A stretch of 64,000 bases of DNA from Bacillota bacterium. GTDB lineage: Bacteria > Bacillota > Sulfobacillia > JAJYWN01. Under the pieces are notes generated by a model that saw only the letters and a list, made by a program, of their open reading frames with translations, did not search any database and was not told the DNA's origin. Where the stretch lies: the NCBI GenBank assembly GCA_021791495.1, contig JAJYWN010000064.1, positions 10,139-74,138 on the forward strand, given 5' to 3'. The position numbers and the translations under genes were made by a program. Below are positions 6,141 to 59,553 of the stretch, in pieces (the first letter of the stretch is position 1; each line of letters starts with the position of its first letter).

Positions 6141-6227
6141 TGGTGGCCCTATGAGCGGATAACGCGGCTCCCGCCGCCGTGAACCCCGACTCAACATAAA
6201 ACCACACCATAGAGGAGGCTGAACATC

Positions 6228-9580: not shown

Positions 9581-9802
9581 ATGCAGATGCTGATCGAAGA
9601 CGCAACGACTTCAAACCTAGACCGCTCGGGAGCGGCCACGGAGATGCTCACCGTCGCCCAAGCCGCCCATTTCCTTCGCTTACATCCTGCCACGCTCTAC
9701 CGGCTCGTCAAGGAAGGGGCCCTGCCGTGCATCCGGCTCGGCAGGCTCATTAGGATTCCCATGTCGGCCATCCTTGGGTTGGTAAGGCCGTCTGCGATGT
9801 AA
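9581..9802 (+). CDS. xis: excisionase-family helix-turn-helix DNA-binding protein (Xis); the start may be at 9644
   Basis: LTVAQAAHFLRLHPATLYRLVKEGALPCIRLGRLIRIP matches the excisionase/MerR-like HTH family. It sits immediately upstream of the integrase. Confidence 0.65.
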   Translation: MQMLIEDATTSNLDRSGAATEMLTVAQAAHFLRLHPATLYRLVKEGALPCIRLGRLIRIPMSAILGLVRPSAM

Positions 9803-9905
9803 GGGCTCCGGGCCATGGGCAGCGGCGGGGCCGGCCCGCCCCAGGCAGGGCCCCAGCCGCTGCCTTCATGACCCTGTTTCGAGAGACATTGGAGGGAGGA
9901 ACCGC

Positions 9906-11120: not shown

Positions 11121-11220
11121 CACCAATAGGTGGTAAGCATGCAGCCAGAAGGCTCCAAGGAGGGCCAAGCCAAAGTTGCTGGTCGAGTTGCCGTTTCTGG
11201 CCAGCTTCCAAGTGACCAAC

Positions 11221-11258
11221 CGAAACCCTCCCTTTCACTACAGGGCGGGAGGGTTTCG
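11221..11258. other. perfect 12-bp inverted repeat (CGAAACCCTCCC / GGGAGGGTTTCG) with a 14-nt loop
   Basis: Seen directly, 100 bp downstream of the integrase stop. There is no U-tract after it. It could be a structural or recombination-related hairpin, or a factor-binding site. Confidence 0.5.
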
Positions 11259-11755
11259 CGTTGGCGCTATCCTGGGAAGGAATCGCCCCTACCTCTTGCC
11301 GAAGAAGCATCTGGCCCTCACGGTTTCGTCAAGGGAGTGGCAGTGTTGTTGTCTCCGCCGTTACTGCGGTTTCCTGCGGATTACCCGCCCGATTGCCCGA
11401 TTTCCGGGGCTCATCCCGTCACCTGGTCCGTATGGTACTTGGTGGATCAGTCGCCACCATCCGCCGATGACTTCAGGCCTTTGGCTGTAAAAGAGGGTCG
11501 AGCGAACTACGAGCGACGCAACAACCGACAGAAATGCATGGCCAGGGGCATATCTGTTTGGACGGACAGGTCGGCTGTCCTGGTTGCGCAGTCTCTAAAT
11601 CCGGGACTGGCGGGAAAGCTGCTTGCGCGTGGTACGATAAAGCCTACAGATGGCTGGGTGGCTCAAACGGGGGGAAATCCTGCCCACCACACGTGGTGGC
11701 CTTTTGAAGGAGTATCTCCGCATACGATTTTCCAGGTTGAGGGGAGGTGAGCGGA

Positions 11756-12946
11756 GTGGCCCACGAGATTGAATTGTTGACTCCTTTCGGGGTGCTGGGC
11801 ATAAGCGAAGTTTGGGTCGAGTTCAACGGGCCTCGGCTGTTCACCTGTGAGAACGCAGCCGGACATGCCTACATAGGGATGTGGGTCATGGAAGGCAAGG
11901 ACAGGGATGTTTATCTCTTTATGGCCGTCAGCCATGAACGTCTGGAAACTATACGCAGAGGCATGATGCCATTGTGTGTGGCTATCGTTTCTTCCGAATG
12001 CGGTATTGAAGAGGTCACCTTCTTCCCGGACGGTTCGGTAGCCAAATCCCGACACCTGGATGCGGAGCAGATCCCGAAAGAGTACCTCCCCTCAGAGGAT
12101 GCGGTAGTGACAATCTACGAGGATCAGGAACACCGAGAGCCCGAGATCACTTCGGTCACAATGGCTGTTCGAAGCCGGCGGGAGATCGTGGACGTGTGTG
12201 TTGATGGGGGAGCAGCTAGATTCCACGAATTGCAGACCAGGCGCCTAGGGACCCTCCTACTGAACACCCAAGATCTCTTGGATGACCTTGCCAACCCGGA
12301 ATCCGCCACCAGAGGAAGATTGCCCAAGGCGCTGATTGACGAGACGCAGTTCAATGCACTACCGGTAGCCGCAGGTTCTTTCCGAATACGTCTGGCGTCG
12401 GCCAATGCTTGTGACCTCTTCTTTGACACGGGAATGGCGACCAAAGCGGCAAGACAGATGGTCGACCTCATCCAGGCGTGTGCCAAGCCGGATAGCCTCG
12501 GGCCTGCTGCAGAAGGCATCGGCCCTCGCGCAGCAGGGAAGCTTCGTGACCTGTTGGGCGATCTGTCCGCTGATGGACTGAGCCTAACTGTGGACTGGGG
12601 ATCGCCTGCCGACCACAGGAACGTGGCACGGCTTTCCGGTAGGGAGGTTCACGAAGCTTTCACTGCCCTCACCCAGAAAGCCCTACCGGTCTCCTCCATC
12701 TTCACGGTCCATGGAAGGCTGACCGGTCTGGACACCGATAAGCGGTCCTTCAGGTTTCACGCTGACGACGGCAGTCTGTACACTGGATCATATACCGACA
12801 ATTGCGCGGAAGAAGTTCTTATGCGTCTGGCCAGGCAGGAAGGCGGGACGCCGTCGACCGCCACTATCGAGCAGATAGTCGTGGTTGTCCCGGCGACTGG
12901 GGAAACCAAGACAAGCAACATATTACGGACGTTGATCCCGGATTAG
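11756..12946 (+). CDS. hypothetical 397-aa protein (orphan cargo gene; the start may alternatively be GTG at 11747)
   Basis: A long ORF with GAGGGGAGG upstream. Its composition is of lower GC than the flanks. No recognizable domains. Confidence 0.55.
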   Translation: MAHEIELLTPFGVLGISEVWVEFNGPRLFTCENAAGHAYIGMWVMEGKDRDVYLFMAVSHERLETIRRGMMPLCVAIVSSECGIEEVTFFPDGSVAKSRHLDAEQIPKEYLPSEDAVVTIYEDQEHREPEITSVTMAVRSRREIVDVCVDGGAARFHELQTRRLGTLLLNTQDLLDDLANPESATRGRLPKALIDETQFNALPVAAGSFRIRLASANACDLFFDTGMATKAARQMVDLIQACAKPDSLGPAAEGIGPRAAGKLRDLLGDLSADGLSLTVDWGSPADHRNVARLSGREVHEAFTALTQKALPVSSIFTVHGRLTGLDTDKRSFRFHADDGSLYTGSYTDNCAEEVLMRLARQEGGTPSTATIEQIVVVVPATGETKTSNILRTLIPD

Positions 12947-13134
12947 GAGGTGGACGCAAGCCGACCCGGGCATTCTCCGACAGCCGAAACGCTTCCACGC
13001 GCTCCTTTCCACGATTGAGCTCCCTCTCCGGCCTCCGAGAGCTGCCTCCACTTGGTTCAATTTTGCGAGAGAAGCATCTCCGTGCCCGACGACAAACCGC
13101 AAACAGTAATGTCAAGATGACTGTCCCGCGGCAG

Positions 13135-13210
13135 AATCCGGGGTCGGCAAAAGACCGCCCCGGGGGCGGTACGCGCAAATCGTTGTCCGGTAATTGCGCC
13201 CGGGAGGACT
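13135..13210. repeat. att-like direct repeat copy: duplicate of the tRNA-Arg(CCU) 3' end plus its downstream hairpin region
   Basis: CAAATCGTTGT...TGCGCCCGGGAGGACT (13176-13210) matches 14821-14856. AATCCGGGG...hairpin (13135-13175) matches 14767-14820. Confidence 0.7.
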
Positions 13211-13729
13211 TTAGCCACCGCGCCGGTCTCTTGTCAGAATCGTGTCCACCAAATCTGCGTATTCCCGTGAGCCCTCCACGCGCGGGCCAGCATCGTGCTC
13301 GATAGCGTGCCGAGCTTTCTCCAGCGGAAGATCGGCCAGAGTACGGGCGATTGCCCAAACGCCTTGCTCCCGCTTCTGTGTTGGTAGATTCTTGACCCCC
13401 AGGGTTTCCGCAAATCGTCTTAGATCCTTGGCCTCCGGCAGCAATTCTCGAGACATCATCTGACTCAACACCTGGGATAAAAAAGCATACATCTGTGGGT
13501 TTTGTTCCCTCAACTCAGTCAGGAAAGCGGATCGTGTGCTTTTTGCCTTGCTTCCGGGGCGCAAGTCTCTACGGGCATTGAGCTTATCCAGAGATCGCAA
13601 AATCCTGCCGAGAGGTTCGGTCTCCGAGTCACCTTCCAGGATGCTGGTGACGTCAAGAATATCCCGTCTTGAGTACGTCTCCCCAATGATCAGCATTTCA
13701 AGAAGTAGCTTCTTGTTTGTTGTCATCAC
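13211..13729 (-). CDS. hypothetical protein, putative ParA partner (172 aa)
   Basis: It overlaps the parA stop by 4 nt (ATGA). Low-GC composition. Confidence 0.5.
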   Translation of the reverse strand: MMTTNKKLLLEMLIIGETYSRRDILDVTSILEGDSETEPLGRILRSLDKLNARRDLRPGSKAKSTRSAFLTELREQNPQMYAFLSQVLSQMMSRELLPEAKDLRRFAETLGVKNLPTQKREQGVWAIARTLADLPLEKARHAIEHDAGPRVEGSREYADLVDTILTRDRRGG

Positions 13730-14565
13730 AGGCCCACCTTCGCGGCGAACTCCTTTCCAAATGCTTCAAACTCATCTATCACGTTGCTTCTCGCATACTC
13801 CGTATGGAAGATTGCGGTCTTGTCTCTGGCCCCCCGTGGATATGATCGTGAATGGCGAACTTCGTTTACGAACACAGGCCAACCGTACTGTAGCGCTCGC
13901 TCCTTGACCTCAGCCCTAGCCTGGTTGTGTTCCGCGTATGAATAGGATGGGTCGGCGTCGTTGAAAACGATGCCGGCGATCTGTACTGTTGCTGTTCTGT
14001 GTGAGCGCCGGAAATCGTCCAGTGAACGGACTAGCAACGGCAAGCCTATGGCAGCTAGGAACTCCGGCTTTACGGGAATCAAGACACTGTCGCTAGCTAA
14101 ATAAGCTGCCACGGTTAACATCGATTCAGTCGGAGGGCAGTCCAGAAGAATCAGATCATATTTGTCACGAACATCAGCGAGGAAACCTGCCAACAGGTGT
14201 TCCTTGCTAGCCGGGTTCTTCAGCGTCCATGACAACTCCAGCAACGACGGGACCAAGTCAATAAGACTTCCATCGGTCCATCTCTTGACCCGCTTAATCA
14301 TGCTCTCAGGGGTGATCTCTTGCCTCGGTGCTATGGTTGGAGTGAACTGCTCGAAGATGTCAAATACTGTCGGTGCGTGTTGGTCCAGATGCTTTCGATA
14401 CTCTACAACACCCATTAAGTACTGACTTGCGTTGGCTTGGGGGTCCAAGTCGACAAGTAGTACTTTCTTGTTCCGTCTATACGCCACATACCAGGCCAGA
14501 TTGAACGCCAGCGTGGTCTTGCCCACGCCTCCTTTCATGTTGATAACAGCAACGGTGACGACCAT
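13726..14565 (-). CDS. parA: ParA/MinD-family partition ATPase
   Basis: Deviant Walker A motif MKGGVGKTT with LVDLDPQANAS. Confidence 0.85.
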   Translation of the reverse strand: MVVTVAVINMKGGVGKTTLAFNLAWYVAYRRNKKVLLVDLDPQANASQYLMGVVEYRKHLDQHAPTVFDIFEQFTPTIAPRQEITPESMIKRVKRWTDGSLIDLVPSLLELSWTLKNPASKEHLLAGFLADVRDKYDLILLDCPPTESMLTVAAYLASDSVLIPVKPEFLAAIGLPLLVRSLDDFRRSHRTATVQIAGIVFNDADPSYSYAEHNQARAEVKERALQYGWPVFVNEVRHSRSYPRGARDKTAIFHTEYARSNVIDEFEAFGKEFAAKVGL

Positions 14566-14766
14566 TTCAAGCTCCCCCTCTTTCCTTCGTTTGGTAAATG
14601 GGGTTCGCCGCCTGGTCGTTTGGTCCCTGTCCTATTACTCCTTCGTTTTGGCCGATCATTTGACCGTGACGTATAGGGAGGGCCACGCATGGTTCGATGA
14701 TTGGACACGGCATACGGACATGGGCGGCAAGGGCACTGCAGGTTCCAGTTTGGGCACGACTCTGCC

Positions 14767-14856
14767 TAATCCGGGGTAAAATCCGGGGTGGTCCGAAGAC
14801 CACCCCGGGGTTGGTCGGCACAAATCGTTGTGCCGCAATGTGCGCCCGGGAGGACT
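14767..14856. repeat. att-like direct repeat copy at the tRNA-Arg(CCU) 3' end, including a perfect terminator-like hairpin CCGGGGTGGTC-CGAA-GACCACCCCGG (14784-14809)
   Basis: See the matching copy at 13135-13210. Confidence 0.7.
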
Positions 14857-14914
14857 CGAACCACCGGCACGCGGTTTAGGAAACCGCTGCTCTATCCACC
14901 TGAGCTACGGGCGC
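14841..14914 (-). tRNA. tRNA-Arg (anticodon CCU)
   Basis: Manual cloverleaf: acceptor GCGCCCG, D-loop AGGTGGATAGAGC, anticodon loop TTCCTAA, T-arm GGTTCGAGTCC, discriminator A, and no encoded CCA. Confidence 0.85.
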
Positions 14915-22802: not shown

Positions 22803-23819
22803 TCATTCCAGTACCACTTCGGTTGCAACCCCATCAGGTGCACGCCCCTCTGCGGCCTCCTTCAGCTTCGCCAGCAACTGGTGCCGGTCGGCGCCCCGGT
22901 TGTAGTTGTCAAGAGTCCGATCCCACGCCGTTTTGCCAATGCCGGCAAAGCCGTCATAGCGGTGGGTGACCAGTGTGCCGCCGGAGACTGCCTCCAGCGT
23001 AAAGTTCGACCGGATGGGGAACTTCCAATCGCCGCCCTCTTCGAACCACGACAGGACCAGGGACTTCTCGGGTTCCATCTCGAGCACATACCCACTAATG
23101 TGCATGTCGAACTCCGGTACGGGGAAACGGAACTGGCCACCAACCCTCATCTCGATCTCGATATCCCGTTGGAACCAGTTACGTAAGCTCTCCTGTGTAG
23201 ACATGAGCTCCCAGACGGTGCGGGGGCGGGCATCAATCTGAATCGTACGGTGCACTGCGGGCACGGTCATCCCCTCCAGATGCGTTACCGAAGTCCCTTG
23301 GTCTGCCGTCAGCTCCTTGAACAAGGCGGTGACGCGGGCGGCGATGTCGTCGCGCACGCGGCGGAAGACGGCGAGCACCTCATCCTCGGTGCCCTTGGCG
23401 CGTGCCGGGTCGGGGAGGGGCCAGTGGACTTTCCGAACGCCCGGCGGCAGCACCGGGCAATGCTCGTCGGCATCGCCACACAAAGTGACCACCAGGTCGA
23501 GGTCGGGCAGTATGGCGGGGTCCAGGAGTTTCGAGGTGTGCCCGGAAATGTCCACCCCGACCTCGGCCATGACCTGGACAGCCCGCGGGTTCAAGCCGGC
23601 CGGCTCCAGACCGGCGCTGGCGACTTCCCAATGGGTGTTGCGTCCGTCGCCGCCGGCCGCCACGCCACCGGCCGCCACGCCGCCGCCCGCGCCGCTGTCA
23701 CCGGAACCGCCCACCCCGCCCCGATCCAAAGCCCGGGCGAACCCCTCCGCCATCTGGCTGCGGCAGGAGTTGCCGGTGCATAGGAACAGAACGCGCATAG
23801 GCCCTTTGGCGTCTTTCAT
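22803..23819 (-). CDS. arsC: arsenate reductase (LMW-PTPase / thioredoxin-coupled ArsC family) fused to a C-terminal SRPBCC (AHSA1-like) domain
   Basis: N-terminal [17 protein letters not shown]-loop with a Gly/Ala-rich insertion. The C-terminal ~140 aa are SRPBCC-like. Confidence 0.75.
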
Positions 23820-24941
23820 CTATCTGCCCCCCGCCTTTCCGGCGCCAGCGGCAGCAGCACCACCGTTGCCCTTGCCTTCCCCGAAATACCGCCGCGCGAA
23901 ACCCAAGGCCACGTTCACCAGCCCCAGCATCACCGGCACCTCGATCAGCGGGCCGATGACGGCGGCGAAAGCCTGCCCCGAATTCAGCCCGAAGACGGCC
24001 ACCGCCACGGCGATGGCCAGCTCGAAGTTATTGCTGGCCGCCGTGAAGGAGAGGCTGGCGGTGCGCGGGTAATCGACGCCCAACCGCCGGCTGAGGAAGA
24101 ACGACACCAGGAACATGACCACGAAATAGATGATCAAGGGGATGGCGATGCGCACCACGTCGAGCGGCAGCCGCACGATGTAGCTGCCCTTCAGCGAGAA
24201 CATGACCACAATGGTGAAGAGTAGGGCGACGAGCGCCAGGGGGCTGATGCGCGGCACGAACTCCTTCTCGTACCACTCCTTGCCCTTCGCGGGGACCAGC
24301 AGCGTCCGCGTGAGGAAGCCGGCGGCGAACGGGATGCCAAGGTAAATGGCGACGCTCTTGGCCACCTGCCCGATAGTCACGTGCACCACGGCGCCCCGCA
24401 GCCCGAACCAGGCCGGCACCACGGTGATGAAGACGTAGGCATAGACCGAGTAGAAGAAGACCTGGAACAAAGAGTTGAAGGCCACCAGGGCGGCGGCGTA
24501 CTCGCTGTCGCCGCGCGCCAAGCTGTTCCAGACAATGACCATGGCGATGCAGCGCGCCAGCCCGATGAGGATGAGGCCGACCATGTATTCCGGGTACCCG
24601 CGCAGGAAGGTGATGGCCAGGACGAACATGAGGAGCGGGCCGATGACCCAGTTCTGCACCAACGAGAGAAGGAGCACGCGTCCGTCCTTGAACACCTTTC
24701 CCAGTTCGTTGTAGCGGACCTTCGCCAGCGGGGGGTACATCATGACGATGAGGCCGACGGCGATGGGGATGGAGGTAGTCCCCACCGACAGGCGGTCGAG
24801 GAGCGCCGCGATGCCGGGAAAGATGTAACCGAGGGCGACGCCGGCCGCCATGGCGGCCAGGATCCAAACGGTCAGCAAGCGGTCCAGTGATGAGAGTCTG
24901 GGTTGTGGTTGCGGTGGTGCTTGCGGTGCGGTGCTGTTCAC
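23820..24941 (-). CDS. acr3: arsenite efflux transporter ACR3
   Basis: Ten-TM ACR3/BART-superfamily sequence in ars-operon context. Confidence 0.85.
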
Positions 24942-24958
24942 TCGAATGCGCGCCCCTC

Positions 24959-25906
24959 TCAGATGAGCCAGTTAAAGAGATACCCGATTCCCATAATTGT
25001 CGCGGCCCCGATGCCGAAGTAAATGGCGAGCAATTTCGGCTTTAGGACCTTCCGGAGGATAATGGCCTCCGGCAGCGACAGCGCCGTCACGGCCATCATG
25101 AAGGCCAGCGCCGTGCCCATGGCCATTCCCTTTTCAATAAGCGCTTTGACGATGGGGATGGTCCCGGCGGCGTTCGAGTAGAGCGGCACGCCGATGGCCA
25201 CCGCCACGGGGACGGCCAGCCAGCTACCCTTGCCGGCCACCGCCTCCAGCAGCCCTTGAGGGAAATAGCCGTGGACGAAGGCGCCGACGCCGATACCCGC
25301 TAAGACGTAGGGCCAGACCTTGCCGACGATGTCCTTCACATAGCCGCGCGCGTAGGCCAGCCGTTCCGGCCAGGAAGGGTTCTCCACCTGAGCTTCCCCC
25401 ATGCGGATCTGCCAGACGTAGTCCTCCACCAGGTGCTCCAGGCGCAGGCGGCCAAGGACGATGCCCGCGACGATGGCCACCCCAACGCCGGAGGCGATGT
25501 AGATGGCGGCGATGCGCCAGCCGAAGAGGCCCCAGAGCATGACCAGGGCCACCTCGTTCACCATGGGCGACGAGATGAGGAAGGAGAAGGTGACGCCAAG
25601 GGGTACGCCGGCTTCGACGAACCCTATGAAGAGGGGGACGGCGGAGCAGGAGCAAAAGGGCGTCACGATGCCGAGGAGGGCCGCCAGGACGTTGCCGGCG
25701 TACTCGTTGCCGCGGGCCAGGAGGCGGCGGGCCTTCTCTGGCGGGAAGAAGCTCCGGATGATGGCCACGACGAAAATGACGACGGTCAGCAGAAACAGAA
25801 CTTTGACCGAGTCGTAAAGGAAGAAGTTGACCGCCTGGCCGAGGCGGGTCTGCGGCGCAAGGCGCAGGACATCGAAAGTTAGCCAGTCGACGGCGGCGGA
25901 CCACAT
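24959..25906 (-). CDS. permease (DUF318/YraQ-like two-component permease family), ars-operon associated
   Basis: Polytopic membrane protein containing a CSCS motif. This family typically follows ArsR and thioredoxin. Confidence 0.7.
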
Positions 25907-31467: not shown

Positions 31468-33492
31468 TCAGACGCCTGCTTGGAGGTCAGGTGTCCTACT
31501 TCTCTTTTGACTGCCAACATTGCTTCCAGTTCGCTTTCCTTGAAGAAGGACGAATCGAAAGTGGGTGATCCGACAATTTCGGGCGGAACTCATGTTCACG
31601 AAGAACGGTATGACCGTAATGACCACTCCCTCGGCGTACCGAAGCTCCCTCAGCATCTGGTCGACCGTGCCGTTATGCAAATAGTCGTCGAACGGCTCGC
31701 TGGTCACCACCGCCGGGATCAGCAGGTTGATGAGTGTCTCTGGATGCTCGCGGTGTACCTGGCCCAAGTAGGTCTGGAGTGGGCCGACGACGTCGCGGTA
31801 CGGAGACGGCAAGACCACCAGGGGCACCCCTCCGTGGCGCCGCAGGTCCCATTTCTTCTGGTACTTCTCACCCAAATCCGGTTCGGCCGCCACGTAGACG
31901 GCGGTGATATCCTTGGATATCCGCCGGGCCACGCGCAGGGAGTGATCGATTACGGGGCTGAGGCCGCCGATGGTCATGACGACCTTCACCGCTTTGGCAT
32001 CGTCCATGGGCAAGTGTTCGTGGAGCAGGCCTTCCACGCTTTCCCGGAATCTGGCGTAGTACCGGTGGACGTAGGTGAAGTACGCCAGGATCAGCGGGAT
32101 CAGGACCAAGACGATCCAGGCGCCGTGGGTGAACTTGGTCACGGCGATGACCACCAACACCGTTCCGCTGAGCAGGGCGCCCAGCCCGTTCAGGAAGAGG
32201 GACCACCCGTGCCGCCAGATGGACTCGGCCCTCTGTCGGGCCTGTTTCACCCAGTGCACGACCATCCCCGTCTGCGACAAGGTGAACGCGGCGAATACGC
32301 CGACCGCATACAGCGGGATGAGCAGGTGCGTGCTACCCCGGAACAGGACGATGAGCGCCGAGGCCAGCCCGGCCAAGAGCAGGATACCGGAGTTGAAAAC
32401 CAGCGTGTCACCGCGGTTCGTCAGGCGGCGCGGCAGGTAACCGTCGCGGGCGATGAACCCGGATAGTCGCGGGAAATCGGCGTAGGCCGTATTAGCGGCC
32501 AGGAGCAGGATCATGGCCGTGGTCGCCTGAACGATGTAGTAGAAGACGCCGGTCCCGCCGAAGACCTCGCGGGCCACCTGGCTCACCACCGTCTCCCCCT
32601 CCTTGGGAACGGCGCCGAAGCCGAAGGCCAGGATGGTTATGCCGGCAAACATGGTGTAAAGAAGTGTCCTCTCCAAGCCCATGGTCCTGACGGCGTTGCG
32701 GGTCTCCGGGGCGCGGAAAGCCTGAACGCCGTTGGAGATGGCTTCCAGCCCCGTTAGCGCCGTGCACCCGGAGGAGAAGGCCCGGAGCAGTAAGAACAGG
32801 GTGACTCCATTCGCCATTTGCCGGAAGGCCTGGCTGCCGCCACCGATACCAAAGGCGGACCAGGGGCTGACGGCCGGGTGCCAGTCGCCGGCGGCGGCCC
32901 GGATGAGCCCGAAAACGATCATCGCCAAGATGCTGAGAATGAAGCCATACGTGGGCACGGCGAAGATGGCCCCCGACTCGCGTACGCCACGCAGATTGAC
33001 CCAGGCGATAAGCCAGATGACGATGAGGGATAGAACTACTTCCTGGCCGCGGAGAGACGGGACGGCCGAAGTTATGGCGGCGACGCCGGCCGCGGCGGAG
33101 ACGGCGACGGTGAGGACATAGTCGACCAAGAGCGACGCTCCCGCCACCAGCCCCGCCTTGATCCCGAGGTTGTCTTTCGAGACGATGTAGGAACCGCCGC
33201 CCGAGGGGTAGGCGTGGATGGTCTGGGTGTAGGATGCCGCCACGATCATGACCAAGGCGACGATGCCCAAACCGACGGGAAGGGAGTAGGCCGCCGCCGC
33301 CGTCCCGGCAGCCATCAGCACCCACATGATTTCCTCGGTAGCGTAAGCCACGGAGGAAAGACCGTCGGCACTGAACACAGCAAGACCAGACGCTACACTG
33401 AGTCGTTCCAGGTGCTGCTGATCGGTGCGTTTGGGTGGGCCGAACAGCAGGCGCTTGAAACGGCGCACCCGTACACTGGTGGGACCAAACAT
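31468..33492 (-). CDS. APC-superfamily amino acid permease with a C-terminal extension (the ORF track start is 33558; the preferred ATG at 33492 has a GAGGAGG RBS)
   Basis: Twelve or more TMS and APC motifs (AYPSGGGSY). Confidence 0.75.
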   Translation of the reverse strand: MFGPTSVRVRRFKRLLFGPPKRTDQQHLERLSVASGLAVFSADGLSSVAYATEEIMWVLMAAGTAAAAYSLPVGLGIVALVMIVAASYTQTIHAYPSGGGSYIVSKDNLGIKAGLVAGASLLVDYVLTVAVSAAAGVAAITSAVPSLRGQEVVLSLIVIWLIAWVNLRGVRESGAIFAVPTYGFILSILAMIVFGLIRAAAGDWHPAVSPWSAFGIGGGSQAFRQMANGVTLFLLLRAFSSGCTALTGLEAISNGVQAFRAPETRNAVRTMGLERTLLYTMFAGITILAFGFGAVPKEGETVVSQVAREVFGGTGVFYYIVQATTAMILLLAANTAYADFPRLSGFIARDGYLPRRLTNRGDTLVFNSGILLLAGLASALIVLFRGSTHLLIPLYAVGVFAAFTLSQTGMVVHWVKQARQRAESIWRHGWSLFLNGLGALLSGTVLVVIAVTKFTHGAWIVLVLIPLILAYFTYVHRYYARFRESVEGLLHEHLPMDDAKAVKVVMTIGGLSPVIDHSLRVARRISKDITAVYVAAEPDLGEKYQKKWDLRRHGGVPLVVLPSPYRDVVGPLQTYLGQVHREHPETLINLLIPAVVTSEPFDDYLHNGTVDQMLRELRYAEGVVITVIPFFVNMSSARNCRITHFRFVLLQGKRTGSNVGSQKRSRTPDLQAGV

Positions 33493-33565: not shown

Positions 33566-33854
33566 GTCCGTTTGTTTGCGCCGCGGGCGGCTCCTTCGAC
33601 CGACGCCTACGAGGTTAGCTGACGGGTTGGGGCAGTCGAAGTCGCCCCTCCGCTTACGGCGGATTCACCCCAGGGAATTGGGTCCCCCGTTCCTTTTCAG
33701 GATTCGGCGTTTACGGGATGAAACTGTATACCTGCACGGTTTGTGCTGTAAAGGTTCAATGTCACCCTTGTCGTTTCCTTCTTGTTGTAGCTGCGCCTTT
33801 GGCTCACCTGGCACGTGTCATGAAGCACTTCTCGGTCGTTGTAAAGGAAAATCG

Positions 33855-33895: not shown

Positions 33896-33902
33896 TCGCT
33901 TG

Positions 33903-33977
33903 TGCGCCCGGCAGGATTCGAACCTGCGACCTCCAGATTCGTAGTCTGTCACTCTAATCCAACTGAGCTACGGGCGC
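33903..33977 (-). tRNA. tRNA-Arg (anticodon ACG)
   Basis: Manual cloverleaf: acceptor GCGCCCG, anticodon loop CTACGAA, T-arm GGTTCGAATCC, discriminator A. Confidence 0.8.
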
Positions 33978-33985
33978 ATATCCGG

Positions 33986-34076
33986 CGGAGAGAGAGGGAT
34001 TCGAACCCTCGCTGGAGTGAACACCCCACTAACGGTTTAGCAAACCGTCCCCTTCAGCCGACTTGGGTATCTCTCC
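33986..34076 (-). tRNA. tRNA-Ser (anticodon GCU)
   Basis: Acceptor GGAGAGA, anticodon loop TTGCTAA, a long variable arm, and T-arm GGTTCGAATCC. Confidence 0.8.
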
Positions 34077-34157: not shown

Positions 34158-35660
34158 TTAACGCTTAACTATAATAGCACAGCCACGCGTCGAAAACAAG
34201 CAAACGCCGCCGCCGGAGTCTGTCAAGCTAATGTGGGAGCTTCGGTAGTCGAAGGTTTTCAAAGACCTGCTGGAAGTGTTTGGTTGATCTTGTGAAAAAA
34301 GCTTTGAGAGTCCGTGCGAAGCATTAGCTCCGGCTCCCATGATCGGCACGTTGCCCTTCACTGAGGCTAGCGCCGTGTTTGTCAGGTCAAAGGTGATTCT
34401 TCGGACGCCCTCTTTGAGACTTTCGGTTTCCATCAATCCGCGGACCGCCGCCACTTGGTGTGCATAGGCCCTCAGCCGGCCCTCGAAACGCTGCCCTAGC
34501 GCCCGCAGGATGGCTCTTAGCCCTTCTTGCCCCCAACTCTGGCCCCTGCCTTGCAGCCGCCGTTTGAACCGGGCCACGTTGGACTCCGCGGCTCCCAAAG
34601 CCCGGAGGCCCGTCACGTCCACGCCCTTCTCCCGGAGCCGCATGCGGTAATCCACCAGGCCCTGCGGGTAGCTTGCCAAATCCTCTATCAGGTTTAGCAG
34701 CTCTTTGTCCTTGGGGGCTTTCTCCTGGGCCCGACAGAGCGCCGCCAGAACCTGGTCGGGATTGTCGCCCTCTAGGCCCCGCCGCGCCGCCTCCTGTTCC
34801 TCTGGGAAGAGCCTCAAAAGCCTCTTGAAGTCCCGTTTCAAGTGGAACCGGTCGAACTGGTACATCGCATGGTGAAAGTACTCCATGCCTTCCCGGATCC
34901 ACTTGGCTCGGTCGCCGTTAATAGCCACCCATGTGTCGGCGAGATCGTATTCGCTGTACAGTTTGCGGCTGCCCGTCTCCCAGAAGTCCTCCCCGGCACC
35001 GTCGTCCACGTAGTGGCGCCGGTGGACCAGCGAATACTCCTTCCCTGACGGGCTTTTCCTCTCCCAGCCCTCATGGGACGTCAGCTTCTTAGTCTCTTGT
35101 TTTGGCGCGCCCTGCCGGGACACGTACAGGCCGTCGGCCTCGATTAGCAGCACCGGGACCTTCCGTTCTCCGGCCGGGTCCGCCAGTTCCCGCTTCAGAT
35201 CCTCGCCAATGGCGTCTCCGACCTCCAACACTCTCTGCCGGATGGTCTCGTGGCTCACCGGCGGATACTCGTAAATCCGCTCCAGGCTGTCCCTTGCCGC
35301 CCGATAGGACGCGCCTTCCACACCTTCCAAAACAGCCACCTCGACCAGACCCGGACTCAGCCGCTCCCGCTTCTCTAGCCCCAACGCCTCGTCCAGGAGG
35401 GCCACGATCTGGCCTGTCTCCCGGTCCAGATAAGTCCGCCTGCTGAACCGCAGCTTCCCAAACAACGTGTCTATCTCTCGTGAACGCAAGTCCTTGGCCT
35501 GGTATCGCTCCTTGTCCCGGCTCTTGAGCAGCGACCCGTCCAGAAACTCCAGCACTTGCTCCAGCACTTTGACCAACAGGGCGCTAAGCATCCTGAATGC
35601 TTCTCTCTCCAAAACTGAAAACGAAAAGGAACTCGGGGTGGATTCCGTGAAGATTGCCAC
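34158..35660 (-). mobile_element. ISLre2-family (UPF0236) transposase gene; IS ends not determined (approx 34100-35950)
   Basis: A 500-aa ORF resembling ISLre2-family transposases. It is inserted next to the tRNA genes. Confidence 0.6.
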
Positions 35661-36448: not shown

Positions 36449-36766
36449 CTAGAACGCGCCGAGGACCTGGTCCGAGCCTTCCATGATCATCGCGACCAGG
36501 TCCCCATAGGTGCCACTCGCGCAGCCGGGGATGAGCGAAGCCTCGTCGAACCCCCGGAGTCTCAAATCGCCTGTTATGACCAGGACGCGCTCATACTTCT
36601 CGGCCGACAGCCCCAGTCCGGCCGCGGTGGCGGCCAAGGTGGCGTCTTCCAAGAGCGCCAAAGTGACCCTATGCCCCTGCTCGGTCAAGTCGGAGGCCAA
36701 AGCGAAGGCCCGCCGCGCGCCCTCCGAGGTCGGGCTGCTGCAAACCAGCACGGCGATTCTCTTCAT
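36449..36766 (-). CDS. DsrH/TusB-like sulfur relay protein
   Basis: A DsrE/F/H-fold protein about 105 aa long, third in the E-F-H gene order. Confidence 0.6.
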   Translation of the reverse strand: MKRIAVLVCSSPTSEGARRAFALASDLTEQGHRVTLALLEDATLAATAAGLGLSAEKYERVLVITGDLRLRGFDEASLIPGCASGTYGDLVAMIMEGSDQVLGAF

Positions 36767-36805
36767 CTGTTCATGCCCTTCCTTCGTTTCATACCCGTCC
36801 TCCCG

Positions 36806-37174
36806 CTAGAAACGCAGCAGGTGCCGGGTGGACGCGACAAGCCGGGCCAATTCGGCGTCATCGACTTCTTCCACGCCCGGTATCAAGTCTCGGGCCGCCA
36901 GGCCCCGCCTTGCCAAGCTCGGCCCGTGAACGAAGATTCGCGGGTCCAACGCCGGAGAAAGCTTCCGGACACCAGAAAGCACATCCGATAGAGAAGCGAA
37001 GCCACTGGTCCCCGGAGTTTGCCCGGCCCGCGCCAGCCACACCCCGTCGTCCACCAGCACCGCCACGGCGCGTACCCCGTTATTCAGCGCCCCGTTCAGG
37101 TGCCGGACGCCCTCCGCGGCGGAGACGGTACCGTACGGCGCCCGGGAAATCAGGATACAGACGGAGTTCTCCAC
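36806..37174 (-). CDS. DsrF/TusC-like sulfur relay protein
   Basis: A DsrE/F-family protein about 122 aa long, in the middle position. Confidence 0.6.
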   Translation of the reverse strand: MENSVCILISRAPYGTVSAAEGVRHLNGALNNGVRAVAVLVDDGVWLARAGQTPGTSGFASLSDVLSGVRKLSPALDPRIFVHGPSLARRGLAARDLIPGVEEVDDAELARLVASTRHLLRF

Positions 37175-37186
37175 AGCTTCCCCTCC

Positions 37187-37621
37187 CTATTGCCCCAAGG
37201 CGATGAGAGCCTGGCTTTCCGATAGCGCGGTGAAGAGTCCTTTCAAGGAACTCGGTTGGGTACTCGGAACGCGCATCTCCTCCGCGCGCAGGTTGCGGAG
37301 GGTCAAACATGACCCGCATAGGTCGACGCATAGGCCCTTCTCGATCAAGCCGGGCAGCCTTTCTCCCACCAAGGGAAGGCCGGCGGCCTTCTGCTTGCTC
37401 ATCACGCTATAGACCCCGTCGGCCGAGGCGAACAGGTTCACCCGGAACCCTTTCTCCAGCGCCGCCTCAGCTAGGTTAAGGGCTGTATGGGCGGCCTGGG
37501 AGCCAAAGGGGGTACCCGTGAGGAAAATGGTCAGCGTCTTGTGGACATCGTTCCTGTCTTGACGTTCTTCCATCTGCATCTCCCCGCCCAACCGGCTTCG
37601 CGTCGACCCGCCTTCGGCCAT
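37187..37621 (-). CDS. DsrE/TusD-like sulfur relay protein (conserved Cys in CGSC)
   Basis: DsrE-family sequence (TIFLTGTPFGSQ...). The start may be internal (MQMEERQ). Confidence 0.65.
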   Translation of the reverse strand: MAEGGSTRSRLGGEMQMEERQDRNDVHKTLTIFLTGTPFGSQAAHTALNLAEAALEKGFRVNLFASADGVYSVMSKQKAAGLPLVGERLPGLIEKGLCVDLCGSCLTLRNLRAEEMRVPSTQPSSLKGLFTALSESQALIALGQ

Positions 37622-37732: not shown

Positions 37733-38668
37733 ATGGAGATCTATCGCCTCGAGACTTTCCGCCGATTGGCCCGCGCCCTGAACTTTTCCCGGACGGCGGA
37801 GGAACTGTCGCTGAGCCAGTCGGCGGTGTCCAGACACATCGAAGCCCTAGAGCGGGAACTTGGGATGAGGCTGTTTACGCGAAACGGCCGGGAAGTCGCC
37901 CTGACCGAGGCCGGATCTCGTCTGCTGGACTACGCCGAACGCATCCTGGATCTGGCGGGCGAAGCCACCCGGGCGCTGGCGGAATTGAAGAACCTTGAGA
38001 GCGGCGAGTTGTGGGTTGGGGCCAGCACCACGCCCGGCAACTACCTCTTGGGGCCGGTGATTGCCGCCTACCAGCAGCGTTATCCGGGGGTGGAGCTACA
38101 CCTGAATATCGGCGATTCCCAGTCGGTCCTGCGCGAGGTGGAGGAAGGTGCCATCGACGTGGGTGTCCTTGGTTTTCCACCCCGCACGGCCGGGGTCGAG
38201 ATCGAGCCCTACGTCCGAGACGAGCTCGCTTTGGTGATGTCACCGCGCCACCCTCTCGCTGGTCTCCTGGAGATCCGGGCATCCGACCTTGGGACGACGC
38301 GCCTTCTGGTCCGTGAGCAGGGCTCCAATTCCCGCCGGTCTGTGGAGGAACACCTCCGTAACCGGGGCTTCCAGCCCGTACACCTCGGTGAGCTGGGCAG
38401 TACGGAAGCGATCAAGAACGCCGTCGCCGCGGGAGCGGGCGTGGCGTTTCTGCCGCGTTGTGCTGTCGACTTGGAGATCCGAGCAGGCATCTTGGTGGCC
38501 GGGACCGGCGCCGACTGCGTAATCGGGCGACAACTGGTGCTGGCCTACCCCAAGGGACGCCGGCGACCACCGGCCGCGCTGGCCTTTGCGGCTCTCCTGC
38601 GGAAGATTCGTTCCGGCGCGGAGGTAACGGAAAGGCCAGAAGCAGACGCATCTCGGAAAGGGGACTGA
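37733..38668 (+). CDS. LysR-family transcriptional regulator
   Basis: It begins at MEIYRLETFRRLARALNFSRTAEELSLSQSAVSRHIEALE (HTH) with AGGAGAAG upstream. The ORF track's upstream extension was rejected. Confidence 0.85.
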   Translation: MEIYRLETFRRLARALNFSRTAEELSLSQSAVSRHIEALERELGMRLFTRNGREVALTEAGSRLLDYAERILDLAGEATRALAELKNLESGELWVGASTTPGNYLLGPVIAAYQQRYPGVELHLNIGDSQSVLREVEEGAIDVGVLGFPPRTAGVEIEPYVRDELALVMSPRHPLAGLLEIRASDLGTTRLLVREQGSNSRRSVEEHLRNRGFQPVHLGELGSTEAIKNAVAAGAGVAFLPRCAVDLEIRAGILVAGTGADCVIGRQLVLAYPKGRRRPPAALAFAALLRKIRSGAEVTERPEADASRKGD

Positions 38669-38673
38669 CCCCC

Positions 38674-39720
38674 ATGGACAACCTTCCGCCTATCCGGCTC
38701 ACTTCGTACTCGCCCGGCAGCGGCTGAGCCTGCAAGGTCGGCCCGGCCGACTTGGCGCAGGTCCTGCGCCACCTTCCGCCCGTGTCCGATCCCCGGTTCA
38801 TGGGGAAGATAGGCGACGATGCGGTGGTGTACCGCCTTTCCGATGATCTGGCCATCGTGCAGACCGTGGACTATATCACCCCGGTGCTGGATGACCCATA
38901 CTCTTTTGGTCAGGTGGCCGCGGCCAACGCCTTGAGTGACGTCTACGCCATGGGAGCCACCCCCTTGTTCGCGCTGAACCTGATCGGGTTCCCCGTGCGA
39001 GACCTGCCCCTGGCCCACATGGAGCAGATCCTCCTGGGTGGCGCCGCTAAGGTGGCCGAGGCCGGGGCGGTGGTCGCCGGCGGCCATTCCGTCGATGACC
39101 CTTCGCCCAAGTTCGGATTGGCCGTGACCGGGTTGGTGCACCCCGACCGGCTGGTGACCAAGGCCGGCGGGCGCCACGGGGACATGCTCTTCCTCACCAA
39201 GCCGCTGGGGAGCGGGGCGGTCGTCACCGCCCTGGACCGCGGTCTGGCGGGGAAGGATGCCGAGTCCGCCGTGTTCCCGCTCATGAGCGCCTTGAACCGC
39301 GGCGCCGCCGAGGCCATGCTCCGGGTGGGGGCAGCGGCCTGTACGGACGTGACGGGGTTCGGTCTCTTGGGTCACCTACACGAGCTGGCCAAAGCCAGCG
39401 GGCTGTCCGCGCGGGTCCAAGCGTCCGCCATTCCGGTGCTGCCCGAAGCGCGCGGTCTTCTCGAGCTGGGTGCCGTCTCCGACGGTACCCGCCGGAACGT
39501 GCGTTTTCTGAGGGATCTCGTGGATTGGGGGCCGGAGGTCTCGGAGGAAGACCGCTTGATGCTCAGTGATGCACAGACCTCCGGAGGGCTCTTGATCGCG
39601 GTGGCGGAGGAGAAGCGGGACGCGATGGCCGTTGCCCTCAGGGAGGAGGGCTGCCTGGCCTGGGACGAAATCGGCCGGCTGGTCGAGGGCCCCGCGGGGC
39701 GCTTACTGGTGGTTGACTAG
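38674..39720 (+). CDS. selD: selenide, water dikinase SelD (selenophosphate synthetase), a selenocysteine-containing form with an in-frame UGA at 38725..38727
   Basis: The ATG at 38674 and the M at 38752 are in the same frame and separated only by a TGA. The translation MDNLPPIRLTSYSPGSG-U-ACKVGPADLAQVL aligns with the SelD catalytic G-x-G-[C/U]-x-CK motif. The rest is an AIR-synthase-like fold. Confidence 0.75.
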
Positions 39721-41238: not shown

Positions 41239-41267
41239 ACCTCTTTTCAGACCGCTCCATCATAGTG

Positions 41268-41353
41268 CGGAAGGGGTGGGATTCGAACCCACGGCCCCTT
41301 GCGGGGTCACTGGTTTTCAAGACCAGCTCCTTAAACCGCTCGGACACCCTTCC
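41268..41353 (-). tRNA. tRNA-Ser (anticodon UGA)
   Basis: Acceptor GGAAGGG, anticodon loop CTTGAAA, long variable arm, T-arm GGTTCGAATCC. The anticodon is UGA (reads UCA), so this is not tRNA-Sec. Confidence 0.8.
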
Positions 41354-51917: not shown

Positions 51918-53178
51918 TCAGCTGATCTTGGTCATGCCGTTCATGTACGTCCGCAACACGTCGGGAACGGTGATGGTGCCGTCGGCTTCTTGGTAGTTTT
52001 CGATGATCGACGCCGCGGCGCGACCGACGGCGACACCCGAACCGTTCAAGGTGTGCACGAAGTCGACTTTTCCGTTGGCGCGCCGGAACCGGATGTTCGC
52101 GCGGCGTGCCTGGAAAGTCTCAAAGTTCGAACAGGACGAAATCTCCTTGTAGCTGTTGTAGCTCGGCAGCCAGACTTCCAGGTCGTAGGTCTTCGCCGAC
52201 GAAAAACTCATGTCCCCGGAGGACAGTAGGACCCGGCGGAAGGGCAGTTCCAGGAGCCGCAGCACTTCTTCGGCGTCGGCCGTCAGTTTCTCCAGTTCGT
52301 CGTATGAGGTCTCGGGCAGCGTGAATTTGACCAGCTCGACCTTATTGAACTGATGCACCCGGATCAGGCCGCGGGTGTCGCGCCCGGCCGACCCGGCTTC
52401 GGCGCGGAAGCAGGCCGAGTAGGCCGTGTACTTGATGGGCAGGTCGGCTTCGGCCAGGATCTCCTCACGGTGCAGGTTGGTCACGGGTACCTCGGCGGTG
52501 GGAATGAGGTAGAAACCGTTGTTGGCGACCTTGAACATGTCTTCCTCGAATTTCGGTAACTGGCCGGTGCCCACCATGCAGTCGGCGGAGACCATGTATG
52601 GCGGGATGATCTCCGTATAGCCGTGCTTTTTCGTGTGCAGGTCCAGCATGAAGTTGATCAGGGCACGCTCCAGCAGGGCGCCGGGGCCCTTGTTCACGGC
52701 GAAACGGGCGCCGGACATCTTCGCGGCACGCTCGAAGTCCAGGATGTTCAGGGCGGGGCCCAGGTCCCAGTGGGGCTGGGGATCGAAATCGAAGCGGGTC
52801 GGCTCGCCCCAACGGGATATCTCCACGTTCTCCTTCTCGTCGGCGCCCACGGGGACGCTTTCGTGGGGGATGTTGGGGAGGTAGAGGAGTTGGCGCGAGA
52901 GGTCGTCGTCCACCGCCTTCACCGCATCCTCAAGCTCTTTGATGCGGACGTTCGCCTGCTGGAGGCGGGCGATGTCGGCCGAGGCGTCCTGGCCGGCCTT
53001 CTTCTTCCGGCCGATATCTTCGGAGGCCGTATTCTTCGCGGCCTTGAGGGACTCGACTTCCGTGAGGAGCTGGCGGCGCCGGGCGTCGGTGGCGAGAAGC
53101 TGGTCCAGGCCCTCGCCGGCCTTCTTCTTCGCCAGCCCCTGACGGGCGGCCTCAGGATTCGCGCGGATGGTGCGGATA

Positions 53179-53186
<8 letters not shown>
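51918..53186 (-). CDS. serS: serine--tRNA ligase
   Basis: N-terminal coiled coil and class II aaRS motifs. Confidence 0.9.
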
Positions 53187-57195: not shown

Positions 57196-58656
57196 CTAAC
57201 CTTTCATTACCGCCAGGGGGCGCAAACGCGCCACCTTCCGGGCGATGCCGGCGGCGTCGGTCACGCGCACCACGTCGTTGACATCCTTATAGGCCTCCGG
57301 CGCTTCTTCCGCCAGCGTGGCGTTACTGGTGGCGCGTACGGAGATGCCGCGCCGTTCCAGCTCCGCCTTGAGTTCGGCCCCGCGCGTTTCCTTCTTCGCC
57401 TCGCTCCGGCTCATCAGGCGGCCGGCGCCGTGGCAGGCCGACCCAAATGTCTCGGCCATGGCCTTCTCCGTTCCGACGAGAATATACGAGTTTCGGCCCA
57501 TGTCGCCCGGCACCAGGACCGGCTGCCCGGTGGATCGGTAGGCCGCCGGCAGTTCGGCGTGGCCGGCCGGAAAGGCACGGGTGGCGCCCTTGCGGTGCAC
57601 ACAAAGCACCCGTTGGCGTCCTTCGACAGTGTGCCTCTCTTTCTTGGCGATATTATGGGCCACGTCGTAGAGGAGCGAGAGCCCCAGGCGTTCTGGCGTC
57701 GATCCGAGGATGCGGGCGATCGTCTCGCGTGTCCAGTGCATGAGACACTGGCGGTTGGCCCAGGCGTAGTTGGCGGCGGCGGCCATGGCCGACAGATAGG
57801 CCTGCCCTTCGGACGAATTCACGGGAGCGCAGGCCAGTTGCCGGTCGGGGAGATGCAGGTCGTACTTCTTCGCCGCCTGGGCCATGACGTCAAGGTAGTC
57901 GGTGCAAACCTGGTGCCCCAGGCCGCGGGAGCCGGAGTGGATGGACACCACGACTTGTCCGGCGGAGAGGCCGAAGGTGGCCGCGACCGCCGGATCGTAG
58001 ATTGTCTCGACCAGTTGGACCTCAAGGAAATGATTGCCCGAACCCAAGGTGCCCAATTGGTCGTGTCCACGCTTAAAGGCGCGGGGCGATACTTTTCCGG
58101 GATCGACGCCTGGTAGGGAGCCGCCGGCCTCAGTGAAGGCTAGGTCTTCGGGGGCGCCGTACCCTTTCTCCACCGCCCAGGCGGCGCCGCGGGTCAGAAC
58201 TTCCTCCATCTCGCGGCGCTCCACCTTGATCTTCCCGCCCGAACCGACGCCCGAGGGGATATTGTCGAAGAGGGCGCCGATGAGTTGGTCAAGGTGGGGG
58301 CGGACGTCGGCCTCAGTCAAGTTCGTCCGGACAACGCGGACGCCACAGTTGATGTCGTACCCGACCCCGCCGGGCGAGACCACGCCCTGGTCCCAGTCGG
58401 TGGCGGCCACTCCTCCGATGGGGAAGCCGTAGCCCCAATGGATATCCGGCATGGCCAAGGAGGCGCCGACGATGCCCGGGAGGGTAGCCACGTTGGCCAC
58501 CTGCTCGGGCGCTTGATCCTCTTTGATGGACGGCAGAAGGCCAGCGTCGGCATAGATGATCCCGTCCACCCGCATCCCGGACTTGTACCCTCTGGGGATG
58601 CGCCAACGGTTGGCGTCGATCTGCTCAAGTTTGCCTTGCCACCCGGCCATAGACAT
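57196..58656 (-). CDS. rtcB: RNA-splicing ligase RtcB
   Basis: Conserved His/Cys metal-binding residues across 486 aa. Confidence 0.9.
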   Translation of the reverse strand: MSMAGWQGKLEQIDANRWRIPRGYKSGMRVDGIIYADAGLLPSIKEDQAPEQVANVATLPGIVGASLAMPDIHWGYGFPIGGVAATDWDQGVVSPGGVGYDINCGVRVVRTNLTEADVRPHLDQLIGALFDNIPSGVGSGGKIKVERREMEEVLTRGAAWAVEKGYGAPEDLAFTEAGGSLPGVDPGKVSPRAFKRGHDQLGTLGSGNHFLEVQLVETIYDPAVAATFGLSAGQVVVSIHSGSRGLGHQVCTDYLDVMAQAAKKYDLHLPDRQLACAPVNSSEGQAYLSAMAAAANYAWANRQCLMHWTRETIARILGSTPERLGLSLLYDVAHNIAKKERHTVEGRQRVLCVHRKGATRAFPAGHAELPAAYRSTGQPVLVPGDMGRNSYILVGTEKAMAETFGSACHGAGRLMSRSEAKKETRGAELKAELERRGISVRATSNATLAEEAPEAYKDVNDVVRVTDAAGIARKVARLRPLAVMKG

Positions 58657-58771
58657 GCTCCTTCCGTGCCGCCGTGAAGCCGAGGCCGCCCGGGCGCCCT
58701 ATTTCACGAGAAATAACGGGTGCCCAGGACAGCGTCGCCGCTATTTGCCTAGAGTCGTTGGTTCGATATCG

Positions 58772-59296
58772 TCAGTTCTTTCCTGAGCGCCGGCCGCGCC
58801 TTTGAGATTCGCCTTTTCCGCCGGTCGGTGGGGTCGCAACCTCTTGTTGACCCTTTCCCAGGCGGGAATCCTCCTTGGCCGCCAGTTCGAGGCCGCCGGG
58901 GAGCGTGTAGTTCACCATAAGCGCATCCCGATGCCCAACGTCGTACGCCAGAGCGGCCATGATGTAGGAATTCAGGCTGACTCCGCTGAGTTTGGCATGA
59001 ACCGCCAACCGTCGATGGAGCGCTGGAGCTATCCGAAGAGTAAGATGGCCGCTGAATTCGGAAGAAGCGCTGGGCTTGGGAACGGGCATGCCATCCTCAC
59101 GTGCTGATTCCAGCCATATGTCAATGGCGTCCGTTAGGAGGTCAAACAGCCCTTCCAAAGTGTCCGATACGGCCACACATCCGGGTAAATCGATGACCGT
59201 AGCAGCCCATTTTCGGACTCCACCGTCCCTTTCCACCTGCTCCAAGAGAAACGGATAGTCAATCCGCGGCATGGGTGTCACTTGAGCCTCCTCCAT
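58772..59296 (-). CDS. hicB: HicB-family antitoxin (type II TA)
   Basis: N-terminal HicB (RNase H-like fold) and a C-terminal RHH-like DNA-binding region. It overlaps hicA. Confidence 0.7.
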   Translation of the reverse strand: MEEAQVTPMPRIDYPFLLEQVERDGGVRKWAATVIDLPGCVAVSDTLEGLFDLLTDAIDIWLESAREDGMPVPKPSASSEFSGHLTLRIAPALHRRLAVHAKLSGVSLNSYIMAALAYDVGHRDALMVNYTLPGGLELAAKEDSRLGKGQQEVATPPTGGKGESQRRGRRSGKN

Positions 59297-59553
59297 TCAG
59301 ATGGGATAAGGTTGAACACCAAGTCTAGTACCTGTTCGACATAATGAGGGTCTACCGGCTCGTGGTCTGGGATTGGCACAGTGCGAAAACCAGGTCTCTT
59401 GATCTTCATCTGGTGCTTTCCGCCCGGACCAAATTGTAGACCGAAACGTTTGGCGACTGTCTCCAACTCGTCCACACGGATGTCCTTCGCTCCGGCCAGC
59501 ATCCGCCGGATGATCTTCCTAACTCCCATAGGGGTCAGTCCGTTCGCCAACAT
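59278..59553 (-). CDS. hicA: HicA-family mRNA interferase toxin
   Basis: dsRBD-like fold with GKHQMKIKRPG...VPIPDH. Confidence 0.7.
   Translation of the reverse strand: MLANGLTPMGVRKIIRRMLAGAKDIRVDELETVAKRFGLQFGPGGKHQMKIKRPGFRTVPIPDHEPVDPHYVEQVLDLVFNLIPSEWRRLK

Follow-up and report, generated by a model that had tools for sequence, protein, structure and literature searches.

Bacterial SelD proteins that contain selenocysteine (Sec) have already been described (PMC4561486, PMC1794560), and no bacterial selenoproteins are more widespread than FdhA and SelD, SelD alone being able to sustain the Sec trait (PMC1794560; PMC13188914). That SelD can be a selenoprotein which depends on its own product is long established, and what is new here is a previously unannotated member of this group. 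Bacterial SECIS elements, which accompany such a UGA in the mRNA, are too diverse for a single model (PMC13188914). Zhang and Gladyshev's bSECISearch model, summarised in the same paper, takes a loop of 3-9 nt, a stem of 4-16 bp, a G within the first two loop positions and a spacing of 16-37 nt, and it is the model applied here. Two further published observations bear on the locus: selenophosphate synthetases that are truncated N-terminally, and are thereby without the Cys/Lys loop, fail to rescue a selD mutant of E. coli (bioRxiv 10.1101/2020.01.28.922716), and the LysR_Se subfamily of regulators has been reported only in SelD-containing organisms, most of them Sec-decoding, where its genes are often found beside selA, selB or selD (PMC5322559).

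The selD gene and its in-frame UGA

Positions 38674-39720 of the window (the whole stretch of DNA that was analysed, 64 kb in length, to which all coordinates refer) are one gene, selD, and its predicted product is a full-length member of the SelD family. The coding features of the locus are as follows.

37733-38668, plus strand: gene for a LysR-type regulator, directly upstream of selD; best match NF040786.
38655-38676, plus strand: Shine-Dalgarno-like GGAAAGGGGA (38655-38664) and the ATG (38674-38676), as read from the sequence; SelD alignments begin at residues 6-8.
38674-39720, plus strand: full coding sequence of selD, 348 codons of which codon 18 is UGA; encodes selenide, water dikinase.
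38725-38727, plus strand: UGA, the predicted Sec codon at residue 18, in the G-x-G-[C/U]-x-C-K loop and opposite Cys17 of the E. coli protein.

The ATG at 38674, the TGA at 38725-38727 and the open reading frame that runs to 39720 all share one frame. Seventeen sense codons (MDNLPPIRLTSYSPGSG) lie between the ATG and the TGA, the read-through translation being MDNLPPIRLTSYSPGSG*ACKVGPADLAQVL..., and the first start-type codon 3' of the TGA is the TTG at 38752, the frame staying open until the TAG at 39718-39720. The ATG at 38674 is the true start codon of selD. Upstream of it, at a gap of 9-10 nt, is the purine-rich GGAAAGGGGA (38655-38664), and no purine-rich or Shine-Dalgarno-like stretch was read upstream of either the TTG at 38752 or the ATG at 38800. 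The first-pass annotation, made from the letters of the DNA, had proposed that translation runs through the TGA from the ATG at 38674 with its ribosome-binding site, and that this ATG and an ORF start at 38752 share a frame with only the TGA between them; the coordinates and the shared frame were all confirmed on reading the sequence. The same ATG lies 5 nt past the stop of the co-directional LysR-type gene, and the two genes are probably co-transcribed.

For the protein searches, Cys was placed at the UGA position. The family model TIGR00476 matches the 348-residue product with 365 bits (cut-off 125), protein residues 8-314 corresponding to model positions 1-310, and NF002098 matches the read-through SelD with 328.9 bits (cut-off 299). 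E. coli SelD (PDB 3u0o) aligns with residues 6-346 of the product (E = 1.4e-72), the SelD chains of the PDB align across the whole length of the read-through product, and the AIRS (PF00586) and AIRS_C (PF02769) domains are present on the recorded 306-aa product. Around the UGA itself, PIRLTSYSPGSG-U-ACKVGPADL aligns to E. coli SelD without a gap, which sets the UGA against Cys17 and K21 against Lys20, and in the SelD chain of Aquifex aeolicus a Cys stands in the column aligned with the UGA. The loop that characterises SelD, a catalytic Cys or Sec with a Lys three residues on, is present as GSG-U-AC-K, with U18 and K21. Given that the 17 residues upstream of the UGA belong to the SelD family match, their presence is not due to chance. 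The earlier placing of the UGA at the catalytic Cys/Sec position of SelD is thus upheld by the family model and by the gapless E. coli alignment, which agree, and when the read-through translation was aligned with SelD proteins, as had been suggested, the 17 upstream residues were included in the match. The gene is almost certainly Sec-encoding, its product being a 348-residue Sec-type SelD that is predicted to make selenophosphate for the synthesis of Sec-tRNA.

The gene call on record (contig DAIBIV010000026.1 of the MAG GCA_027420595.1) is a product of 306 aa that corresponds to 38800-39720, and drops 42 residues, among them U18 and K21 of the active-site loop. Ordinary gene callers end the first frame at the UGA and resume from a later start codon, and hence the recorded selD call is without this loop; furthermore, given that loop-less truncations fail in complementation, the recorded 306-aa model would be an inactive enzyme. 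It had been anticipated that gene callers would truncate selD, and the 306-aa record bears this out, but the start that was chosen is the ATG at 38800 and not the assumed 38752, an exact look-up finding no SelD product from the 38752 start on record. The significance of the gene is therefore mainly one of annotation: automated surveys would score this SelD as truncated and miss the evidence of Sec use, and with the corrected model Sec use becomes likely for this high-GC lineage, which is poorly sampled and probably belongs to the Bacillota.

Comparison with relatives was made by a scan of one genome per species, which gave 80 SelD loci (the best 55% identical), and by a metagenome scan, which gave 80 further SelD loci (at most 54% identical). 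In neither the species-level genome collection nor the metagenome collection was a SelD found that is more than 55% identical to the window protein. The codon that aligns with the window UGA is TGA in 12 of the 80 genomic relatives and TGC or TGT in the other 68, and it is TGA in at least 30 of the 80 metagenome loci; across the 160 related loci compared, the Sec/Cys codon pair is exact at one column. In relatives L003, L004, L020, L023 and L059, selA lies directly upstream of a Sec-type selD, and in relative L052 the gene order is selA-selB-selD, again with a Sec-type selD. This pairing of TGA with TGC/TGT, together with the linkage to selA and selB in relatives, is what a selenoprotein gene classically shows.

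Hairpins 3' of the UGA

Two hairpins follow the UGA within the coding sequence.

38737-38751, plus strand: proximal hairpin GUCGGC-CCG-GCCGAC, 6 bp; weak, may serve the recoding signal as a spacer or an accessory.
38753-38771, plus strand: distal hairpin U-GGCGCAG-GUC-CUGCGCC-A, 8 bp with the loop GUC; best candidate for the SelB-binding SECIS core.

The helix GGCGCAG-GUC-CUGCGCC of the distal hairpin occupies 38754-38770, is extended to 38753-38771 by an extra U-A pair and folds with a local MFE of -13.6 kcal/mol. Counted from the UGA, its loop starts at 33 nt, close to the upper limit of 37 in the bSECIS model, and the hairpin agrees with that model in all of its structural terms (a 3-nt loop that reads G then U, an 8-bp stem and a spacing of 33 nt). 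On alignment of 13 Sec-type genes, 92% of the cells of the distal helix are paired and three pairs show double changes (GC/AU/CG at one, GC/AU at another), as against 26-46% paired in the slid-register controls, and the observed score was reached in 0 of 500 shuffles. One such compensatory change takes CAG/CUG to CAA/UUG; in the Ala/Arg codons of the helix, GCG/CGC becomes GCA/UGU or GCC/GGC, by which the residue becomes R, C or G and the pairing is kept. The comparison of helix pairs took in 142 distinct sequences. Sec-type genes that share the ..LAQVLR.. motif (the 'V' genes, n = 16) form a mean of 7.6 of the 8 pairs; the mean is 4.1 of 8 in the Cys-type genes that encode the same or a near-identical peptide (n = 103), none of which reaches 8.

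Thermodynamic and codon-level measures give a less marked signal. The 66-nt fold has a z of -0.74, no better than shuffles, and the 121-nt fold a z of -2.45, while about 2-3.5% of synonymous recodings at the codon usage of this genome give an equally good distal hairpin (8/8 pairs). The GU of the loop is forced by a Val codon and is present in Cys-type genes too. Given that folding energy alone is weak and the recoding signal modest, the weight rests on the comparison with relatives. Rfam gave no SECIS family over the whole window at the gathering score, nor over 38600-38900 at E up to 10; a match to IBV_D-RNA was judged to be due to chance.

The distal hairpin at 38753-38771 is, from these comparisons, most likely the SelB-binding element and is put forward as the candidate SECIS. 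A recoding hairpin just 3' of the UGA had been proposed at the outset, and the proposal stands, the distal hairpin being Sec-type-specific, covarying and in keeping with the bSECIS model. Folding the region and comparing it with SECIS models, the means by which that proposal was to be checked, gave a divided answer: the distal hairpin fits bSECIS, but neither the 66-nt fold nor Rfam singles it out. Divided too was the fate of the three helices originally listed, of which the distal has strong comparative support, the proximal is weak and the outer is not conserved.

The proximal hairpin can be extended to 38735-38753 by G-U and A-U pairs, and it narrowly falls outside the bSECIS model on two counts, its CCG loop being without a G at its first or second position and its spacing being 15 nt. 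The register in which it forms in the window is fully paired (6/6) in 15 of the 68 Cys-type genes as well, which points to codon composition rather than to selection for Sec, and the hairpin follows largely from the GC-rich codons for G-P-A-D. A layout survey covered loci L001-L166 over the first 60 nt after the Sec/Cys codon (38725-38784 in the window). In a register 2 nt 3' of the window's proximal one, the hairpin GGUCC-NNN-GGACC is nearly universal in Sec-type selD, and in this register the Gly codon is GGU in 35 of 39 Sec-type and 42 of 103 Cys-type genes and the Asp codon is GAC in 37 of 39 and 34 of 103, respectively. The window gene has Gly GGC in this usual register and forms 4/6 pairs there, the only broken register in its group; its own proximal hairpin may be a spacer or an accessory element.

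Two layouts were seen among the Sec-type selD genes, one with the proximal GGUCC-loop-GGACC hairpin followed by the distal GU-loop hairpin, and one, in a Dehalococcoidia-like group, with the proximal hairpin only (UAGGUC-CGGGA-GACCUA). In this latter group (n = 22) the proximal hairpin is the only conserved structure, with 5.6/6 pairs, and the distal hairpin is at background, with 4.3/8. The existence of two selD SECIS layouts, with the window gene as an outlier in the proximal one, offers a modest lead for the modelling of bacterial SECIS elements. It also raises the possibility, a doubtful one, that the recoding signal of Sec-type selD is made of two parts, and that SelB would act in the window gene through the far hairpin, which a spacer hairpin that can be exchanged would bring within reach; if true, this use of the far hairpin would be new information on the spacing tolerance of bacterial SelB.

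An outer helix had also been considered. The complementary AAGGU (38734-38738) and ACCUU (38771-38775) are present in the sequence and overlap both hairpins; when every 5-bp register was scanned over the Sec and Cys genes, the best gave 3.85/5 in Sec against 3.15/5 in Cys genes, with 3/5 in the window, and the outer helix was rejected as not conserved.

Proposed selenocysteine insertion and competing explanations

Taken with the identity of the protein, it is highly probable that the window selD encodes selenocysteine at UGA codon 18. In the mechanism that is suggested, SelB with Sec-tRNA(Sec) would bind the mRNA hairpin just 3' as the ribosome approaches the UGA, its binding site most likely being the 8-bp GUC-loop hairpin at 38753-38771, with the hairpin at 38737-38751 perhaps serving as spacer or accessory, and SelB would then deliver selenocysteine in place of termination by release factor 2. 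Given that a Sec-type SelD makes the selenophosphate for Sec-tRNA, the enzyme would be needed for its own synthesis, a self-reinforcing loop that is already known.

The organism presumably decodes UGA as Sec, and the LysR-type gene beside selD, whose best match is a selenium-associated family, speaks indirectly for this. tRNA-Sec was sought with ARAGORN and Rfam, about 40 ORFs were compared with NCBIfam, and SelA and SelB were looked for by their motifs; no selA, selB or tRNA-Sec was found in the window (64 kb), nor in the stretch L084 past its gyrB end, which takes in only the dnaA-gyrB origin region. A scan of the window for further selenoprotein genes, as coding-like pairs of ORFs joined by a TGA, gave antisense artefacts only. 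TGA is the commonest stop, at the end of 15 of the 26 confidently identified window genes, which indicates that the code is standard and that UGA is not reassigned. An independent Logan assembly of run SRR13201255 has the identical start, TGA and hairpins, and the TGA of selD is thus not an error of a single assembly.

Given that the recorded gene call is the 306-aa product from 38800, that the Sec machinery was not found within the 64-kb window and that TGA is an ordinary stop codon in this genome, it could be held that selD is damaged or truncated, the TGA being a nonsense mutation of a former TGC or TGT, or a sequencing error, and a short product being made from the TTG at 38752 or the ATG at 38800. 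However, this is very improbable: 17 codons 5' of the TGA and 8 codons 3' of it still make up a clean SelD N-terminus, a Shine-Dalgarno-like sequence is found before 38674 and before neither 38752 nor 38800, the distal hairpin that is specific to the Sec type is fully intact, and the TGA recurs in the independent assembly. Furthermore, the short enzyme would be without the catalytic Sec/Cys and Lys, and truncations of this kind fail to complement selD mutants. Low-level near-cognate read-through of UGA is known in bacteria generally, and the Sec machinery of this genome is presumed rather than seen, both of which would accommodate a UGA that is read as a standard amino acid (Cys or Trp by near-cognate decoding, or through reassignment of UGA) with no Sec machinery at all. 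Such decoding is scarcely credible in a window where 15 of 26 genes end in TGA; a Sec-specific, covarying hairpin has no role in simple read-through, the TGA in relatives is linked to selA and selB, and the regulator gene that adjoins selD is of the selenium-associated LysR kind (as its best match, below the curated cut-off).

A separate question, once selD is taken to encode Sec, is which hairpin would bind SelB. It is possible that the SelB element is the proximal hairpin at 38737-38751 and that the distal hairpin slows the ribosome or stabilises the mRNA. The proximal hairpin is the sole conserved structure in the 22 Dehalococcoidia-like genes (5.6/6, with 4.3/8 for the distal), the choice of GGU and GAC in its conserved register is strongly Sec-specific (35/39 vs 42/103 and 37/39 vs 34/103), and in the window the G of its loop at 38745 equals the first loop G of the group in its distance from the UGA. 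The loop of the proximal hairpin is some 20 nt away from the UGA, a distance near that in the SECIS of E. coli fdhF. Nevertheless, this assignment is unlikely for the window gene, in which the conserved register is broken (4/6, with Gly GGC) and is the weakest of its group. The proximal hairpin that does form begins 15 nt after the UGA, outside the bSECIS model, and 15 of the 68 Cys-type genes form it in full. The distal hairpin has every pair in the window and covaries within the group to which the window gene belongs. Binding of SelB to the distal hairpin is thus the preferred reading.

Gene neighbourhood and comparison with known systems

The LysR-type gene upstream of selD finds its best match in NF040786 (LysR_Se), with 224.6 bits and E = 1.3e-66 against a curated cut-off of 250. 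A LysR gene adjoins selD in only 2 of the 80 loci, and DsrEFH-like genes do so in none (0/80). Three small DsrE/DsrF/DsrH-like genes (128, 122 and 105 aa) lie at 36449-37573 on the minus strand, divergent from the LysR-type gene and about 160 bp from it. The stops of the DsrE- and DsrF-like genes are both TAG, and these two genes are hence not selenoproteins; the three might form a sulfur or selenium relay under the control of the LysR-type regulator.

The window adjoins the replication origin, with dnaA, dnaN, recF, gyrB and gyrA. A tRNA-Ser(UGA) gene (41267-41353) and a seryl-tRNA synthetase gene (51918-53186, minus strand) are no more than 15 kb from selD; in bacteria that decode Sec, it is SerRS that charges tRNA-Sec, but nothing suggests that this proximity is more than coincidence. 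Beside gyrA, genes for an RtcB RNA ligase, for the archease adjacent to it and for a HicB-like antitoxin occupy 57196-59300 on the minus strand. The best NCBIfam match of this RtcB is the intein-containing RtcB model, with a score well below the cut-off, and the protein therefore probably has no intein. On the other side of selD, an ISLre2-family transposase gene (34158-35660, minus strand, 268 bits; recorded as 477 and 500 aa in two assemblies) is placed between a tRNA-Ser/tRNA-Arg pair (33902-34076) and the SHOCT and DsrE-like genes. A c-di-AMP riboswitch of the ydaO type lies at 33589-33719 on the minus strand (106.6 bits, E = 2e-24), and directly downstream of it is a gene for a 674-aa amino-acid permease (about 31468-33490). 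This riboswitch, taken with the order of genes at the origin, points to a probable high-GC lineage of the Bacillota. An arsenic and metal resistance cluster at 22803-25906, minus strand, encodes a thioredoxin-type arsenate reductase domain, an ACR3 arsenite efflux transporter and an SaoE/SO_0444-like efflux protein. The stretch 1-14914 is island-like and ends at a tRNA-Arg(CCT) gene (14840-14914); it holds adjacent hsdM-like genes of type I restriction (1-1161 and 1155-2720), a tyrosine recombinase (9906-11120) and a ParA-like ATPase (13726-14565). An exact look-up found no record of an MFS protein from a TTG start.

In its regulator, the locus may be compared with LysR_Se or HrsM, the LysR regulators associated with selenium metabolism (NF040786; PMC5322559): this is the best family for the gene upstream of selD, and such regulators are reported to adjoin sel genes in distant organisms, but with 224.6 bits against a curated cut-off of 250 the gene is no more than a possible member. 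In its enzyme, Lys20 and the ATP-binding core of E. coli SelD (3u0o) are conserved, the difference being that E. coli has Cys17 where the window gene has the UGA, and that the E. coli gene is without a SECIS and needs no recoding. In its recoding signal, the window gene shares with the bSECIS consensus and the E. coli fdhF SECIS a coding-region hairpin after the UGA, and with bSECIS a small apical loop that begins G-U, an 8-bp upper stem and a spacing inside 16-37 nt. The loop of the fdhF SECIS starts about 19 nt after the UGA; that of the window gene is 33 nt away, a second hairpin fills the gap and there is no bulged U. The apical sequence GCAGGUCCUGC is similar to that of fdhF, GCAGGUCUGC.

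The closest described systems are the Sec-type SelD proteins of Aquifex aeolicus, Moorella thermoacetica, Clostridium spp. and Symbiobacterium thermophilum, which belong to the same full-length enzyme family as the product of the window gene. The window gene differs from known Sec-type SelD in that its protein shares no more than 55% identity with the SelD proteins found in the collections searched, in that the register of its proximal hairpin is unusual, and in that selD has no adjacent selA or selB and is preceded instead by a LysR-type regulator gene. It is like them in the UGA at the matching catalytic position within the glycine-rich loop near the N-terminus (G-x-G-U-x-C-K), in the stem-loop directly 3' of the UGA and within the coding sequence, in the commonness of Cys-type orthologues, and in the shortening of the gene by gene callers.
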